Positions 31,274 to 51,665 are shown, numbered from the stretch's first letter. The stretch: 64,000 nucleotides of DNA from Massalongia carnosa (GCA_965645245.1 OZ287067.1:2046001-2110000), one strand, 5' to 3'. A program made the numbers and translations. Notes: generated by a model from the letters alone, not told the origin.

Positions 31274-32651
<1,378 letters not shown>

Positions 32652-32782: not shown

Positions 32783-33249
32783 TCACTGAATGTACCACCC
32801 CCACTGCCGAACCATCCAAGCCAAACTCCCCGTACTCACCATCACCGGGCCTGCCAACCCAGCCCCCCACCTCGTACTTCCAAAAACTAGCCACTCACTC
32901 GCGAAATGAGTGAACGCAATTCCATAGGTCCACAGCGCCAGCTGATACGCAACTGGGTTGTCGATATGGTACGCGGCGTAGAACCGCACGACGGCAGACA
33001 AGAATGTCCAGGTGCCGAAGGTTCGCGCTGAGAGGGCATTCACGGGCCGCGCAGGCGAGGAGTAGACCTGCGCGGTGTAGGTTAGGGTTAGGTAGGATTG
33101 AACACTGTTGAGGACGGAGACAAGGGAGACCTGGAGGAGAAAAATGTTAGATTGAGTAGTTCGGGGGAAGGGAGAGGGTGGGGAAAGCGGACGAGAGTGA
33201 GCCAGTATGGAAGGAGCCCTCTGTCGCTAGGGGGAAGATAGGAGGCCAT
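32783..33249 (-). CDS. ERG28: Ergosterol biosynthesis protein Erg28 (2 exons)
   Basis: MASYLPP...LLPYW, then LSARTFGTWTFLSAVVRFYAAY...HFASEWLVF. Confidence 0.92.
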
Positions 33250-33324
33250 GATGATGGAGCGATGCAATGTTTATGGAAAGATTTCCAAACTTTCGGAGAA
33301 TATCGAGTAAAATTTGTAAATAAG

Positions 33325-33333
33325 TATATAAAA
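33325..33333 (+). promoter_or_regulatory. TATA element about 30 bp upstream of the tRNA
   Basis: tatataaaa at -33 to -25 relative to tRNA position 1. Confidence 0.5.
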
Positions 33334-33357
33334 CTATGAGATCGTGATTTGAAGTAC

Positions 33358-33524
33358 GGAAAGGTGGCCGAGCGGTCTAAGGCGTGCGACGTGAGTGTCT
33401 TCTCCCTCCTGCAATATCCTCTTGATTACTAAATCTTTAATAGTCAAGCTCTAAGCTTCAGCTGTTCAGCAGTTTGATTATTCGCATATCGAAAGATGCA
33501 GGGGTTCGAATCCCCTCCTTTTCA
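33358..33524 (+). tRNA. tRNA-Leu(CAA) with two introns: 53-nt GT-AG intron (33391-33443) and canonical 37/38 intron (33449-33480)
   Basis: Acceptor GGAAAGG/CCTTTTC plus A73; A-box TGGCCGAGCGGTCTAAGGC; anticodon stem TGCGA/TCGCA; loop C|TCAAG|T after removing both inserts; long variable arm TATCGAAAGATG; T-arm AGGGGTTCGAATCCCCT. Confidence 0.92.
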
Positions 33525-33544
33525 TTTTTCATTTTTCATTTTTG
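33525..33544 (+). terminator. RNA polymerase III terminator (T-runs)
   Basis: tttttcatttttcatttttt directly after the discriminator base. Confidence 0.8.
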
Positions 33545-33733
33545 ATTTGGCTCTCCAATGCTCTCCAAGTGAAGAGCAAATGTGGGGGTCGTTGAACCAC
33601 CGGTTCACACTTGCTCAAGCGATTTTGCTCAAGCGATTTGATCTTTGTGCGATTTCCTATTTTTCGTAACAAGTTGGGCTCGATCTTACTCTGCAGCCAT
33701 CCTGCCGATACTATCCTGCATCTTTAGACAGTC

Positions 33734-34906
33734 ATGGCGGATCTAAATTGCATTTTTCAAGCCTTGACTCTAGGTCTGGTGGGAGACCCGCATGCAGAAG
33801 CCAGCACCAGTCAGAAACCCCTTGTTGTCGTCTCCGCCCTAATCGGCCTCGTGTTCATTGCCTTCAAAATCCTCAGCTTCGTCCGTCTCCTCACTAGCCT
33901 CTTCATCCTCCCTGGAAAACCAGTATGTACTGTCCTCTCCATCTTGACCTCCCCAATGGCTTGAGCTCCCCCCCTCCCCTATAGTCTCTTACAATAGATT
34001 CCGCGCATGCTTATCCTCTTCCTCTCTAATAAAAAGCTCTCATCCTTCGGCCCCCCAAACTCGTGGGCCCTCGTCACCGGCGCCTCGGATGGCATCGGCA
34101 AAGAATTCGCCCTTCAACTCTCCCGCTACCATTTCTCCATTCTCCTCGTCTCCCGCACGCAATCAAAACTCGACGCCATTGCTGCCGAAATCCGTGCCCA
34201 CAAACCCTCTCTCACCACAAGAACCTTTGCGATCGATTTCGCCCACGCCACGCCCGCCGAATACGCGCGTCTCGCGACTACGATCCAGGAGCTCAAAATT
34301 GCCATTCTGATCAACAACGTCGGCGCCTCCCACGCCATCCCCGTCTCCTTCGCCGACACCCCTGAGCGGGAAATGGAAGACATCATCGCCATCAACACCC
34401 TCGCCACCCTGCGCGTCACACGCCTCGTCCTGCCCGGCATGCTAGCCCGTAAGTGCGGGCTGATTCTCACGATGGGATCTTTCGCAGGCCTGGTCCCTAC
34501 CCCGCTGTTGGCCACTTATAGCGGCTCCAAAGCCTTCCTGCAGCACTGGTCCAGCGCGCTCGGTGCCGAGTGCGAGCCTGCCGGCATCACCGTGCATCTG
34601 GTGCAGAGCTACCTCGTTGCGAGCGCCATGTCGAAGATTCGTCGAGCGAGCGCTACCGTGCCCGCGCCTAGGGAGTTCGTGAGGTGTGTGTTGAGAAAGG
34701 TGGGCCGCGCGGGTGGGGCGCAGGGATGGGCGTATACGGGTACGCCTTGGTGGACTCACGCTGTTGGGGAGTGGGCGGTAGGAGCCGTTGGGGGGTTTAC
34801 GGCCGGGTGGGTGGTGAGATGGAATCGCGGGATGCATGAAGAGATCCGCCGGCGGGCGATGAGGAAGAGGGAAAGGGAAGCGAGGGGTGGGAAAAAGGGG
34901 AATTAG
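33734..34906 (+). CDS. IFA38: Very-long-chain 3-oxoacyl-CoA reductase (SDR), 2 exons
   Basis: WALVTGASDGIGKEFA, LINNVG.SH.IP, LLATYSGSKAFL, SAMSKIRR; C-terminal KKGN. Confidence 0.92.
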
Positions 34907-35349: not shown

Positions 35350-36822
35350 TCACCATTTTCGTTCCCGATATTTCATGCTCCCCCGTCCCTTGAACTTAAC
35401 TTCCGGCTCTCCTCCGCCGCCTTCCTCCAGTGCGGGGGCCAGACGTCCCTCCCCCCCAGCCCAGCTCCTTCCCAGTGCATTCCGGGCCCCTTCGTTGAAT
35501 TTGGCGTTGTGGATGCTGTTAATTGTGGATTTTCCGTTTCTGCGATCGCCAAGGTAGCCAGCGTTCCCCCTTTCCACGGAATGGTCTTCCCACCGGCTTG
35601 CCTTCCTTTCCTCTTCCTCCTTTGCCAGAGCTTGTTCATCACCCCATCGCTCTCTCCGCCCCGCCTTTTTTCTTCTTGGTGACCTCGACCTCGACCGCTG
35701 CTTCGATCGAGATCGGCGACGCCGGAGGTGCGGAGAATGGGCTTCCCCTCGAGAGCGCGAGCGAGAAGGGGGTAGACTACGCTTGCGACGGCGGGGATGG
35801 TAGTGGGAGGAGTGCGGGCCTTGAGACGGAGCCGTGGGCGATGGGGAGCGTGAGAGGCTGCGGCCGCGCCGGGTTTCGTCAATGGCAAAGTCGCTACGAC
35901 GGCGGGTTGGTTTGGTGGCTTTTTCATGAAACGGCGAGGACGAGTGGGGATTTTGGGAGGAGAGGGAGTGCCGTGATGGGGAGGGGTCGGCGGGCTTACG
36001 ACCTCGATCGTGTGGGGATCTGCGCTGCTGGGGAGATTTTGGTCCAAGGGAATGGGATTGAAGAGCTACTTCGACGTGTCCCTGGCTGTGGCGGTTGAGG
36101 CCAAGCTCGCCGCAGCAAGCGATGACGAGGTCTTCAAGCGGGCGGTCTTTGCCGTCGACAGGGACTTTAGACATTCGGGCAAGGGTTTCCTGACCGGATA
36201 CGATGTGCCCGAAAACAGCGTGTTTCACGTTCAGATGGGGACATGGTGCAAGCGTGATGAAGAATCTAGGCCGGCGTGAGTTTATTGGATTGTTGCTGGA
36301 TATATTTGTACATGGCAAATCGAGTGAACGAACTGAGATTGATCGACAGAATGGGAGACAGGATTGCTGGAAAGTGACTCACTGACTGCTATTCGTGCCT
36401 GGCCCTCTGTTCGCCATGCATACCAATCCCTCCTTATCGATTTGCCTCCATCCAATATTCTCATCCTCAAACCCCTCACCGTAGATACTTGCCCCGCCTG
36501 TGCCATCGCCCGCTGTGATGTCTCCGCCTTGGATCATGAAATCGTCAATCACGCGGTGGAAGAGCGAGAGCTTGTATGTCAATGGCCTCGAGGCAGACGG
36601 TGGGGTGAATGAAGATGTACATAGTGCACGGAAGCTAGTAGGTGAAGATAGCGTCAGCGAGGAGCTTACGAGGCAATAGAAGGAGAAGAAAGGGCGGGGG
36701 ACTTGCTTTTCACATGTTTTGGGTGCTTTGTCAACGAACAGCTCAACTACAACCCGTCCGTAGAACTCGGCACCCCATTGAATATCAAAGAACACCAATG
36801 GTCGAGATGGTGGTTCTGCCAT
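35350..36822 (-). CDS. Cyclophilin-type peptidyl-prolyl isomerase with RS-rich C-terminus (CYP-G/SRcyp-like)
   Basis: VFFDI...[58 protein letters not shown] repeats; ends [14 protein letters not shown]. Confidence 0.9.
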
Positions 36823-39800
36823 CGAGGAGGATTGCGTTGAGGGAGAAGGAAGCATGAAGATTCGGTGTTTGGATCCAAAGTAGGGACACGCTCGAGCGGT
36901 GGGAACAGCTTCGATACACTTTCATTCACCAGCGACTGGATTACAAACATTCCCAATCTTCGCTGTGAGCGTTACGAGCTATTGGGGAGCCGGTCAGAGT
37001 ACATACTTCTTTTCGAGGAGAAATACAACGTCGCCTTTTTCGAGCGACTCTGAACAATCGGTCCTATTGGTTATCTACTACCACATAGTAGGTTACATAT
37101 CTATCATCATCTACAAACTAGTTGATACGGAGTGGTATGCAGCATCTTACTCTACATTCAAGCAAAACGCACACTCTGAATATGTGAATGGCTCACCCCC
37201 AAGGAATGGTTAGCCAAGCATCAGCCCACTTCATCAAAGCGAGATCTTAGCACCCCTCAGCCCCTTAATCGTTTGGGGCCAAAATCAAAGGAGCTTCAAT
37301 GCTGAGGAGAGTTTATGATCGGTTGGGATGCAACCGCCGATGACAGGACTTTATGCCATCATTGAGCGCTAGATTGTCCTCGGTATTAGTTTCTGTGACA
37401 GTGATACGACGAAGGACGACAAGGACAGACACCTAGGGTGTCGGATAAGTAGATATGAGCATAAAGATAGTTAGAGCGGATATTAAGATTATTTGACAAT
37501 GCCCGAACATCTGTCAATCGAGTTGCTCTAAGAATGCGCTGATTGGTAACAAACACAGAGAATGAATGATTCATATGGGAGATTTGACTTGGAAGCTTCC
37601 TGTGCAACGGTAGGTTGAGTAGCGGTCCAGCTCCAAGCGATTATTGAAATTTCCAGTCAGGTTAACATATAGTGTAACTTATATTGAAATTTGGCCGCTG
37701 GGTAGGATTAAAAACAATCCACCGTCTGCATAGCAATGAGCGTTGTTACCCAAAACTTGCTCTGGAGCAAAGTTTAAAGGGTTAAGATGGCTTGACAAAA
37801 AACTAGCCCCCAGTTAGACATTATGCATTCATGAAGGCAGGCTGTGGCTACACCAAAAACGGGGTAGCTTGGACCTACACAACTTGTCAGATTGCTGATA
37901 CCTATCTCTTGTCAGTTAAGGTCAGTTAACCTTAGATACGGTTAAGCAGGCCTGAAAATAAGTGAAAATCCCATTGTTAATCTTTAGTTATAAGGGTCTG
38001 AGCGGAACTCTCGGATCCCTAAACGAAGACCAAGCTAGAAGATATCTGCAGCTCTAGGTCACGTGACATCATGCCCTCCTTAAGCAACGTGGATTAACAG
38101 TAGCTGCGTGGTTGGGCGGCATCTTGTACATCCTTGTCCCATCAGCTCTCTTTCCCTGATAAAAAAGCACTTTAAAGCTCTTGAAGTTACCTCAGCGCTG
38201 ACCGAGGCATTCTGATTTTCGGCTCTTGAAGGCAACGAGATGGCAACACGGTGGCGATGGATGAGAAACAGGTGAAAGAGAGGGGAGGGCCGAAGGGCGC
38301 CTGTATGTGTTTGGTCGTGGCGCTGCAGCTTGCCATCATCCCAATGCTAATGCGAATGCATTACAAAGAACCGTTCCTTAATTGCCAGCAAGCTATATTG
38401 GCCGTTGGGATTTTTGGAGGTTTTGACGCCCCGGGGATTGCTGCCAGTGAAGCAAGCGCTACATAATACAGTTGGGTGTTAACACGGTTTTACTTACGGG
38501 AGAGGTACTCAAGCACATGAAAGGGGGGGGGTTTGTACGTGATAGTCCCAATCTACGATGAAGGCCAAAAATTGGGTTCCGCATTGTTGAACTAATCTGT
38601 TTAGAAGAAAAACAGACCAGGTGTGATGCGAACAAAGCGCGACGACGCTATCTCGGGTAAGGGAAAGAAACCGCGAAGGATTCTACCAAGAGTTCGATCA
38701 GCATGTTGAACTCAACGAAGCCCAAAAAGGGGTTGAAAGTGGCGAACCTCGTTATAACTACCTATAAATTTAATCCAGTATCTATATTGGACAGGGGCAA
38801 AGGAATTTTCAGCATTCATGTTATAAATATAGAACGATCATGAAGTATGAGTAAACGATAGACTAGAAAGTTAGCCTTCAGGATGCTGTCCATACTGAAT
38901 GATAGGATTAAGAAGAAGGGCCACCTATGAAAAAAGGTAGCCCCCACGCCTTAACCTCTCCACTCTGTTCTAGGGCAGGTGATTTACCGTGCGCTCGTCA
39001 TTCCAAGAGCGGTTTGAAGTTTCTCGTGCAGTAGCCTGATACCTGGTGACTGAAAAGCCTGCAAGAAACTGCCGAACCTTGGCACAGTAGGAGAATCAGC
39101 TCATGGAAGTAAGGCGAAATATGTGTGACGTTGTCGGAAAGTCGATTGTCAGAAGAAGATCAAAGGAGGTCGAGGATTGGGATGATGATCGGAGTTCTCT
39201 TCGCAGTGTTGTGCAGATATTTCCTGCAGAGTTGACTGACGTAAAGGGTACAATGCACGTAGCAGTGTTAAACAAGGAACGAAGAATTTTTCAAAGTTCT
39301 GTATCTGAGTAAGTAGATTTTCATGTGCTGTCTTCATCCTCCCCTGTCATGCGCTAGCTCGTATTAAAAGGAAATTACCATTTCATAAGATGAGGGACTA
39401 GAGAAAAGCTAGTATGAAGTAACTATTTGTACTTCTCTCATAAATTAGTGTACTTTGATCAAAGGACACAGAGTAGCCGCTACACGTCTCAAACTGAACG
39501 TTGACAAGTTACTGTCAATATGCTCAGTTGCAGATCGGCTTAGACCATACTCGTTGCGTACTCTTGCATTTGATGGCGCACGAAAAGTGCGGGACCCGAA
39601 GAAGTGGTTGAGACTTGGAAAAGGGTCCTGGAGTCTGGTGATCCGGGTACCAAACACGGGGATTCGTCGTTTCTGGCTACCCACAGGAAGCAGCCGAAGC
39701 CGGGGCACGCGTGCTGCATATTCCGTCCCAGATTCCGGATTATCATGAAGGTCCACATGAAGGAAAATGACGCAGAATTTGGGGTTTTGACAGGTTTTCA

Positions 39801-50642: not shown

Positions 50643-51665
50643 ATGTTTATCGCACGGTCAGAATATGGTGAGTTTGTTCTTTACCATTTTCAAGAAGCTA
50701 TATTTGCTAATCAAGCCCTTCAGATCGTGGCATAAAGTATGTATACTCCCCAAACCATCTCGAAATATCCATATTACTGATCAAACCCTCCTCCCGTAGT
50801 ACATTCTCCCCCGAAGGCCGCCTCTTCCAAGTCGAATACTCCCTCGAAGCTATAAAGCTTGGCTCAACAGCAATAGGTGTACCCCACCCACCTTCTTGAC
50901 CTTCTCTCTTTCCGAATTGATGAACTCTCAGGTCTCAACCTCCACCGGCGTAATACTTGGTGTGGAAAAACGCGTAACCAGCACCCTCCTAGAAACTTCT
51001 TCGGTCGAGAAGATCGTCGAGATAGACCGGCACATCGGCTGCGCCATGTCCGGGCTCCAAGCCGACGCCCGCTCCATGGTTGAGCACGCCCGTGTTGAGT
51101 CGCAGTCGCACGCCTTTCACTATAATGAACCTCTGCGCGTTGAGAGCTGCACGCAGGCCATCTGCGACCTCGCGCTTAGGTTTGGCGAAGGAGCGGAAGG
51201 GGAGGAGAGCATTATGAGTCGGCCGTTTGGCGTTGCGTTGTTGGTTGCAGGGATCGACGAGGATGGGCCGCAGCTGTATGTCGTTTTTTCCTGCCCTTTC
51301 CCCCAATATTCTATCCTTCCCTTCCCAAGCGCGCGCAGCCCCCCTTCCCACCAAATTTCTCGGGCTAACTTCTCGCCCTGTCGAAAAGCTACCACGCCGA
51401 ACCCTCCGGCACCTTCTACCGCTACGATGCCAAAGCTATCGGCAGCGGCAGCGAAGGCGCGCAAGCGGAGTTGCAATCCGAATTTCACAAATCCCTTACC
51501 CTCGAGGAGGCCGAGACGCTGGTGCTGAAGACGCTGAAGCAGGTCATGGAGGAGAAACTCGATGCTAAAAACGTACAGCTGGCCAGTGTAACGAAGGATC
51601 GGGGATTTCGGATCTACGGGGATGACGAGATGGAAGGGGTTGTTGGTAGGTTAGGTGGGAACTAA
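50643..51665 (+). CDS. PUP2: 20S proteasome subunit alpha-5
   Basis: [26 protein letters not shown]..., [27 protein letters not shown]. Confidence 0.96.

Follow-up and report, generated by a model that had tools for sequence, protein, structure and literature searches.

Can a nuclear tRNA gene be interrupted by a spliceosomal intron? Eukaryotic tRNA introns are described as sitting at position 37/38 (in the available part of PMC4090602), and the available parts of three accounts assign to tRNA genes only endonuclease introns at this site (PMC12530127, PMC4090602, PMC10275265). A 2025 paper calls the three intron types completely unrelated (excerpt of PMC12530127), and in the excerpt of a 2023 tRNA review the spliceosome is mentioned once, only as a contrast (PMC10275265); the word stem "spliceosom" is absent from PMC4090602. 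The question is raised by a locus in the 64,000-nucleotide stretch of DNA analysed here (the window), in which a preliminary description had placed a tRNA-Leu(CAA) gene carrying a spliceosomal-type intron inside the anticodon loop in addition to its normal tRNA intron. The same description had remarked that spliceosomal introns are not known to be an established feature of tRNA genes, and our searches agree with it: in the full-text literature, with subscription journals and old scans outside the scope, no description of a natural spliceosomal intron in a nuclear tRNA gene was found, the sole phrase match being "non-spliceosomal tRNA introns."

Architecture of the tRNA-Leu(CAA) gene

Once two inserts are left out, positions 33358-33524 of the plus strand form a complete type-II tRNA-Leu(CAA) gene, as judged by sequence reading and by ARAGORN. 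The 5' exon (33358-33390, nt 1-32) provides the 5' strand of the acceptor stem, the D arm, the 5' strand of the anticodon stem (TGCGA), and C32. It is followed by a 53-nt insert between nt 32 and 33 (insert 1, 33391-33443, GTGAGT...TACTAAA...TAG), by a 5-nt micro-exon TCAAG (33444-33448) that holds U33, the anticodon CAA, and G37, and by a 32-nt insert at the canonical 37/38 site (insert 2, 33449-33480) with TTTGA at 33473-33477. The 3' exon (33481-33524, nt 38-73) contains the 3' strand of the anticodon stem (TCGCA), the variable arm, the T arm, the 3' strand of the acceptor stem, and A73. All these elements are on the plus strand. The two strands of the anticodon stem are consequently 92 nt apart instead of the normal 7, separated by C, insert 1 (53 nt), TCAAG, insert 2 (32 nt), and T.

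No defect was seen in the exons. The acceptor stem GGAAAGG/CCTTTTC includes one G-U pair; the D arm reads GCC-GAGCGGTCTAA-GGC, with the A box TGGCCGAGCGG inside it (33365-33375, +); the anticodon stem is TGCGA/TCGCA; the variable arm has 13 nt; and the T arm AGGGG-TTCGAAT-CCCCT encloses the B box GGTTCGAATCC (33503-33513, +), both boxes having been identified by sequence reading. Every stem is paired, and the A and B boxes, U33, G37, A73, and the terminators are all present. With both inserts excised, the gene shows what is expected of a nuclear tRNA-Leu(CAA), namely, a cloverleaf, a long variable arm, A73, the anticodon CAA, and A and B boxes. The anatomy given in the preliminary description was thus recovered, both in our reading of the sequence and in the ARAGORN cloverleaf obtained after both inserts were cut.

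A TATA-like element, TATATAAAA, is located upstream on the plus strand at 33325-33333, that is, at -33 to -25 relative to tRNA position 1. From its sequence and place, it may be a Pol III upstream element but could instead serve a neighbouring Pol II gene. Downstream lies a T-rich trailer (33525-33545, +) with three T5 runs, the first of which (33525-33529) directly follows A73 and resembles a Pol III terminator. This T-rich region, taken from 33519 to 33545, is a short tandem repeat of TTTTTCA-type or TTTTCAT-like units.

Insert 2 behaves as a canonical tRNA intron. At the 37/38 site, it forms an anticodon-intron helix with 4 of 4 pairs, as expected for an endonuclease intron, and a fold constrained to the tRNA domains with insert 1 removed gave an ordinary intron-containing pre-tRNA in which the anticodon is paired with TTTGA. 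This part of the earlier interpretation can therefore be kept.

Standard tRNA finders handle the gene poorly, as had been anticipated. Under default settings, ARAGORN found no tRNA in the whole window, and without the intron option neither the native gene nor any of the single-deletion variants gave a call. When introns were allowed, the native gene was reported as one gene, a Thr(tgt) tRNA with a single 85-nt intron; this call was rejected as nonsensical. No single excision can yield U33. With insert 2 cut and introns allowed, the ARAGORN call was Leu(caa), the 53-nt intron being placed at gcgac-Intron-tcaag, and with both inserts cut by coordinates it was a clean 82-nt tRNA-Leu(caa). In ARAGORN, a clean Leu(caa) call needs the removal of both inserts, and their exact excision restores the 82-nt tRNA in silico. 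A search of the whole window against Rfam at gathering thresholds returned nothing, and no tRNA match was obtained for 33250-33650 at E<=10. Both tools fail here and, by construction, on the metagenome cases described below. Since finders fail on such genes, genomes may seem short of tRNAs that are actually present.

Splice signals and surroundings of insert 1

The borders of insert 1 were argued from the logic of U33, the anticodon, and a purine at position 37. By sequence reading, U33, a Leu anticodon, and purine 37 can be had together only at TCAAG within the 92 nt. Because the base preceding TCAAG is G, position 32 must be the C that follows the stem. The tRNA structure alone therefore sets the borders, and the insert so defined starts with GTGAGT and ends with TAG. 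Both the left border (C versus G) and the right border (G versus T) are fixed, and neither slides. ARAGORN is too permissive to yield unique borders: in exhaustive single deletions with introns allowed, it called 128 of 7,140 variants of the window gene as Leu.

Within these borders, insert 1 has a 5' splice site, GTGAGT (33391-33396), that agrees with the extended consensus GTRNGT, a body that includes a pyrimidine-rich stretch, a branch-site motif, TACTAAA (33427-33433), whose branch A lies ~11 nt before the 3' end, and a 3' splice site, TAG (33441-33443), that agrees with YAG, the last bases being AATAG. The yeast-type branch motif is TACTAAC, from which TACTAAA differs by one letter. The 5' splice site is preceded by C, where G is usual. 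T-runs are not avoided in the inserts beyond chance, the P of finding no T4 being 0.29-0.45.

A random insertion could in principle merely resemble an intron. All 53-nt segments of the window on both strands were therefore counted (n=127,895). GT..AG ends alone occur in 431 of them, and nothing more speaks for chance; GTNNGT..YAG occurs in 10 and GTRAGT..YAG in 3, 2 of which additionally contain CTRA at a distance of 6-34 nt from their end. The frequency of GTRAGT in the window is 0.00032 per position. As the borders are fixed by structure and the extended signals are so rare, chance is no serious explanation; four further inserts in other genes, presented below, share the signals, and we give the idea next to no credence.

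An intron of another class was also considered. Group I introns of the tRNA-Leu anticodon loop, known from cyanobacteria and plastids, exceed 200 nt, have a group I core, and lie within the anticodon. This candidate was rejected, insert 1 having only 53 nt and Rfam giving no group I family in 33250-33650 at E<=10. No other copy of insert 1 was seen in the 64-kb window or in the loci that were fetched, and no duplicated flank is visible. In line with this, insert 1 does not look like an introner or introner-like element, as it has no second copy in the window and no contig from elsewhere in sequencing run X1 (described below) falls on 33391-33443.

Insert 1 could instead be a second endonuclease-type intron, placed at 32/33, as in archaea, nucleomorphs, and Cyanidioschyzon. 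Some eukaryotes do have non-canonical endonuclease introns (PMC4090602, in the part available), and two marine metagenome genes described below (L075 and L094) have short inserts at odd positions that are not GT-AG. Against this proposal, insert 1 was tested in both orientations and no bulge-helix-bulge was found, with 1-2 of 4 pairs in the central helix; its length of 53 nt and its full set of GT-AG signals would also have to be a coincidence. We regard removal of insert 1 by the endonuclease as highly improbable. The spliceosomal character of its sequence is, by contrast, well supported by the motifs read from the DNA, and the preliminary description of a spliceosomal-type sequence between C32 and U33, with GTGAGT, TACTAAA, and TAG, stands, with no bulge-helix-bulge to set against it.

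For comparison with local mRNA introns, an ORF-bridging intron finder was too noisy and Pfam profile continuity was used instead, an intron being accepted when the flanking exon pieces matched consecutive parts of one Pfam profile. Pfam matches on both sides were present in 3 of 12 tested junction pairs, and all 3 were continuous. These introns are located in a cyclophilin gene (36333-36386, -; 54 nt, GTCAGT..CAG), a galactose-1-phosphate uridylyltransferase gene (31674-31722, +; 49 nt, GTGTGT..CAG), and a proteasome subunit gene (51276-51388, +; 113 nt, GTATGT..AAG). The size of insert 1 (53 nt) agrees with these lengths of 49, 54, and 113 nt, as had been claimed for the mRNA introns of this genome. 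The cyclophilin-domain gene as a whole (35350-36921, -), which contains the 54-nt intron, encodes a long arginine/serine-rich tail and looks like a splicing-associated cyclophilin. A fungal-specific transcription-factor domain is also encoded in the window according to Pfam; this domain and the shortness of the introns would suit an ascomycete.

Around the tRNA gene, the intergenic region is divergent and 484 nt long. On one side is an Erg28-family gene on the minus strand (Pfam Erg28 32840-33226), whose ATG at 33249 is 108 nt from the tRNA gene; on the other is a short-chain dehydrogenase gene on the plus strand (Pfam adh_short 33998-34657, ATG 33734), compatible with a 3-ketoacyl-CoA reductase. 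The neighbours had been named as ERG28 and IFA38, which is right in kind. The position of the tRNA gene in this region, where it shares its strand with the adh_short gene that follows it downstream, would suit a situation where insert 1 is spliced only from a Pol II read-through transcript, coming from an upstream start of the reductase gene or from a non-coding RNA, with the tRNA released from it or never made. Against this, A and B boxes lie within the tRNA gene itself, a TATA-like element is found upstream of it, and three T5 runs come directly after A73; a CCAAT motif at ~33553, between the tRNA gene and the reductase ATG, weakly suggests that the Pol II promoter is located after the tRNA. 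We consider splicing confined to a Pol II transcript improbable.

From the arrangement of signals and exons, we lean towards reading insert 1 as a true spliceosomal intron of the U2 type (GT-AG) in a live Pol III tRNA-Leu(CAA) gene. Its host, with A and B boxes and T5 terminators, is then a Pol III-type gene and not the Pol II gene that usually hosts such introns.

Occurrence of the locus and of similar genes

DNA of the locus was found in five sequencing runs from three studies, one labelled lichen metagenome; no RNA run was listed among them. The runs that carry it are near-identical to the window (share of words 0.90-1.00), which makes this a within-species comparison only. Contigs of three runs (X1, X3, and X4) contain the whole gene with both inserts unchanged, and the initial 38 nt of insert 1 are covered by a contig of X5; the gene is crossed without a break by a 26.7-kb contig of X1 and by a 9.9-kb contig of X3. 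Over 2,401 nt, X4 departs from the window by 7 substitutions and a single 7-nt deletion, all of which lie outside 33358-33518; these numbers are too few to speak of constraint. X4 lacks one 7-nt unit of the T-rich trailer (at 33519), so that the number of terminator T-runs is polymorphic.

The main competitor of a functional intron is a young pseudogene. A spliceosomal intron would have been copied into one tRNA-Leu(CAA) gene, for example by reverse splicing into a tRNA transcript, with reverse transcription and recombination as the next steps, or by serving as filler DNA where a break was mended; it would stay unspliced in the Pol III transcript, leaving the gene dead or nearly so, and a different Leu(CAA) gene or tRNA-Leu(UAA) would have to read UUG. 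A eukaryotic tRNA gene with an insertion at an odd place is usually one of many synonymous copies and is presumed to be a pseudogene, the exceptions being nucleomorphs and Cyanidioschyzon with short or bulge-helix-bulge-type tRNA introns (PMC4090602, in the part available). Our comparisons are moreover all within one species, and a recent event would likewise leave the exons intact.

The predicted fold of the precursor also speaks for a pseudogene. In it, AATAG at the 3' end of insert 1 and the adjoining UCAA pair with TTGATTATT, which ends insert 2 on its 3' side, in a helix of 9 bp, so that the usual anticodon-intron helix is extended into insert 1 (33439-33452 with 33470-33482). The 3' splice site of insert 1 falls within this helix and would thus be hidden; excision of insert 2 first would free it. 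In this model, the helix could be due to chance in AT-rich sequence or could be a link between the two splicing steps.

Other observations point away from a pseudogene. No joint that skips insert 1, as expected of an intron-less form, was found in the contigs of four runs, and only the main contig among the 8 records of X1 touches 33358-33518. This counts weakly against a pseudogene and is a weak hint that the genome is without a near-identical or intron-less second copy; contigs show presence and would miss a divergent isodecoder. In addition, UUG accounts for 46 of the 308 Leu codons (15%) in the Pfam-supported exon pieces of the window. As the codon is in regular use, a tRNA that reads UUG is required.

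One minor record of X3 (record 10) is a 151-nt contig with a depth of 2.7, compared with 853 for the main contig. It matches the 3' exon (33481-33524) with 3 differences, and this match is preceded by another intron-like sequence containing TCTTGA. The record is probably the Leu(CAA) gene of another, rarer fungus in the sample.

Similar genes were sought in metagenomes with a pattern that required a D arm of the Leu type and, further on, any base but T at position 33. At least 117 loci matched, and most of the matches listed are algal Leu tRNAs with a one-base register shift. A script that sought the matching acceptor strand behind the T arm identified six loci with long interruptions among the matches listed; because this filter demanded an intact acceptor and T arm, the intactness of those genes is partly selected. 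At least three further Leu tRNA genes were found to carry at least four long inserts, all with a GTNAGT start and a CAG end, and no bulge-helix-bulge was found in any of the four.

The first of these genes, a Leu(UAA) (L040, 392-543, +), has a 51-nt insert, GTCAGT...GCTAAT...TTTTCAG, at 26/27 and a 19-nt canonical intron. A Leu(CAA) gene (L071, 157-434, -) has a 151-nt insert, GTGAGT...TTGCAG, at 26/27 and a 45-nt canonical intron; the same gene with the same inserts was present in a second sample (L115, 57-334, -), the two differing at 4 positions in 625 nt, with none in the exons, none in the GT-AG insert, and one in the canonical intron, again too few to be informative. The third, a Leu(CAG) gene (L027, 154-434, -), is without a canonical intron and has two GT-AG inserts, one of 96 nt at 25/26 or 26/27 (GTGAGT...CTTGCAG) and one of 103 nt at 41/42 (GTAAGT...ATTCAG); when both were cut, the anticodon stem GTACG/CGTAC was restored and ARAGORN gave a clean 82-nt call. 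Exact removal of the GT-AG inserts, and of the canonical introns where present, restores a tRNA in all three genes (L027, L040, and L071/L115). Three borders of the metagenome inserts can slide by one G. With the window included, every long non-canonical insert that could be resolved among the matches listed (5 of 5) has GT..AG ends and begins with GTNAGT, and GT..AG ends were found in 0 of 3 canonical introns (window gene, L040, and L071). From their sequences, these genes suggest that the phenomenon is wider than this window.

The same pattern in three further genes is difficult to combine with a young pseudogene at our locus, above all in the Leu(CAG) gene, where two GT-AG inserts interrupt an otherwise perfect gene and repeated hits on a dead gene would be hard to accept. 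Weighing both sides, we see a young pseudogene as unlikely, although it is the competitor to be taken seriously.

Several other loci came out of the metagenome scan. For four of them (L056, L030, L050, and L054), no division into a tRNA and its inserts could be worked out. Two of these were among the six loci flagged for long interruptions, the other four being the three genes above: L050, which was rejected as a false match, and L056. The latter (392-521, +) is an AT-rich, 129-nt gene of Leu-like type; its acceptor, D arm, and T arm are perfect, and its anticodon stem TCAGT/ACTGA closes on four bases only and is followed by ~60 extra nt. Two marine metagenome Leu(UAA) genes on the minus strand (L075 and L094) appear to contain two short inserts without GT-AG ends, one of ~10 nt in the anticodon arm and one of ~7-8 nt in the T loop; with both cut, ARAGORN called Leu(taa). 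These short inserts resemble the short non-canonical introns of nucleomorphs, and L065 is a truncated relative of the two genes. In L077 and L005, otherwise normal intron-containing Leu tRNA genes, the near-universal U33 is replaced by C or G. Scans of viral contigs and of genome contigs gave 0 matches for the patterns tried.

Proposed maturation and comparison with known systems

Under the functional reading, in which insert 1 is a spliceosomal intron of a live gene, Pol III would transcribe the gene from its A and B boxes and stop in the T5 runs, giving a precursor of ~170 nt. In the nucleus, U1 and U2 would recognise GUGAGU and UACUAAA, and the spliceosome would remove a 53-nt lariat and join C32 to U33. 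What is left would be an ordinary pre-tRNA-Leu(CAA), which the tRNA splicing endonuclease would cut at 37/38 and whose halves the tRNA ligase would join. The gene would thus be alive, and the spliceosome would be needed for making this tRNA. An order in which the spliceosome acts before the endonuclease is suggested by analogy, because the tRNA splicing endonuclease of budding yeast is located on mitochondria (PMC4090602, in the part available).

Across all cases, the GT-AG inserts occupy 25/26 or 26/27, 32/33, and 41/42, in a probable lichen fungus and in at least three metagenome genes. On this basis, we tentatively propose, with some reserve, that spliceosomal introns may be a recurrent, functional interruption of nuclear tRNA genes, gained independently in several eukaryotic lineages and at different positions. 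If this is true, Pol III pre-tRNAs would be regular substrates of the spliceosome, and some tRNAs would need two unrelated splicing machines; here the decoding of UUG, 15% of the Leu codons in the sampled exons, would depend on the spliceosome. Current tRNA finders would systematically miss such genes, leaving apparent gaps in tRNA sets. The division of the three intron kinds by class of host gene would be broken, and tRNA would join the short list of non-Pol II intron hosts, which holds U6, other snRNAs, and rDNA. A real case would put a known kind of intron into a new class of host, apparently not as a one-off, and would bear on how introns are gained, for instance by reverse splicing into abundant RNAs.

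The nearest relative of insert 2 is the canonical intron of fungal pre-tRNA-Leu(CAA), reportedly studied in the yeast gene SUP53 by Strobel and Abelson in 1986. Insert 2 resembles it in its length of ~32 nt, its 37/38 position, and its pairing with the anticodon, whereas insert 1 has no counterpart there. That a Pol III tRNA precursor can be combined with a spliceosomal intron is said to have been demonstrated by Koehrer, Vogel and Domdey (EMBO J, 1990), in whose artificial yeast pre-tRNA an actin intron was reportedly removed by the machinery that splices pre-mRNA. The route would thus be feasible in principle; that construct was engineered, whereas the present case would be a natural gene.

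Spliceosomal introns are also said to occur in ascomycete rDNA, with many lichen-formers among the hosts (Bhattacharya et al., 2000, as cited in PMC5855946 and PMC6652019). As in our case, the introns there are of spliceosomal type and lie in a non-coding RNA gene that is not transcribed by Pol II, and DNA of the window was likewise found in a lichen metagenome run. The rDNA hosts, however, are Pol I rRNA genes, whereas our locus is a Pol III tRNA gene. In the nucleomorphs of cryptophytes and chlorarachniophytes and in Cyanidioschyzon merolae, nuclear-type tRNA genes are described whose introns lie elsewhere than at 37/38, at times two or even three in one gene (PMC4090602, in the part available). 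Those introns are 3-24 nt long or depend on a bulge-helix-bulge and are cut by the endonuclease, in contrast to insert 1 with its 53 nt, GT-AG ends, and absence of a bulge-helix-bulge (PMC4090602, same part).

The closest parallel is the U6 gene of fungi. In Schizosaccharomyces pombe, the sole U6 gene has Pol III as its polymerase and carries an intron which the spliceosome takes out (PMC5855946, excerpt). According to the same excerpt, the snRNA genes for U1, U2, and U5 and the rDNA of ascomycetes can likewise contain spliceosomal introns, tRNA not being listed in it (PMC5855946). The likeness to U6 lies in a short GT-AG intron with a canonical 5' site, branch, and 3' site inside a Pol III non-coding RNA gene. 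The present host differs in being a tRNA with a second, endonuclease-type intron, and its splicing is predicted from sequence; as tRNA does not belong to the spliceosome, an origin of insert 1 by reverse splicing at the catalytic centre is not obvious. The U6 precedent nevertheless implies that a Pol II host is not obligatory for a spliceosomal intron (PMC5855946, excerpt).
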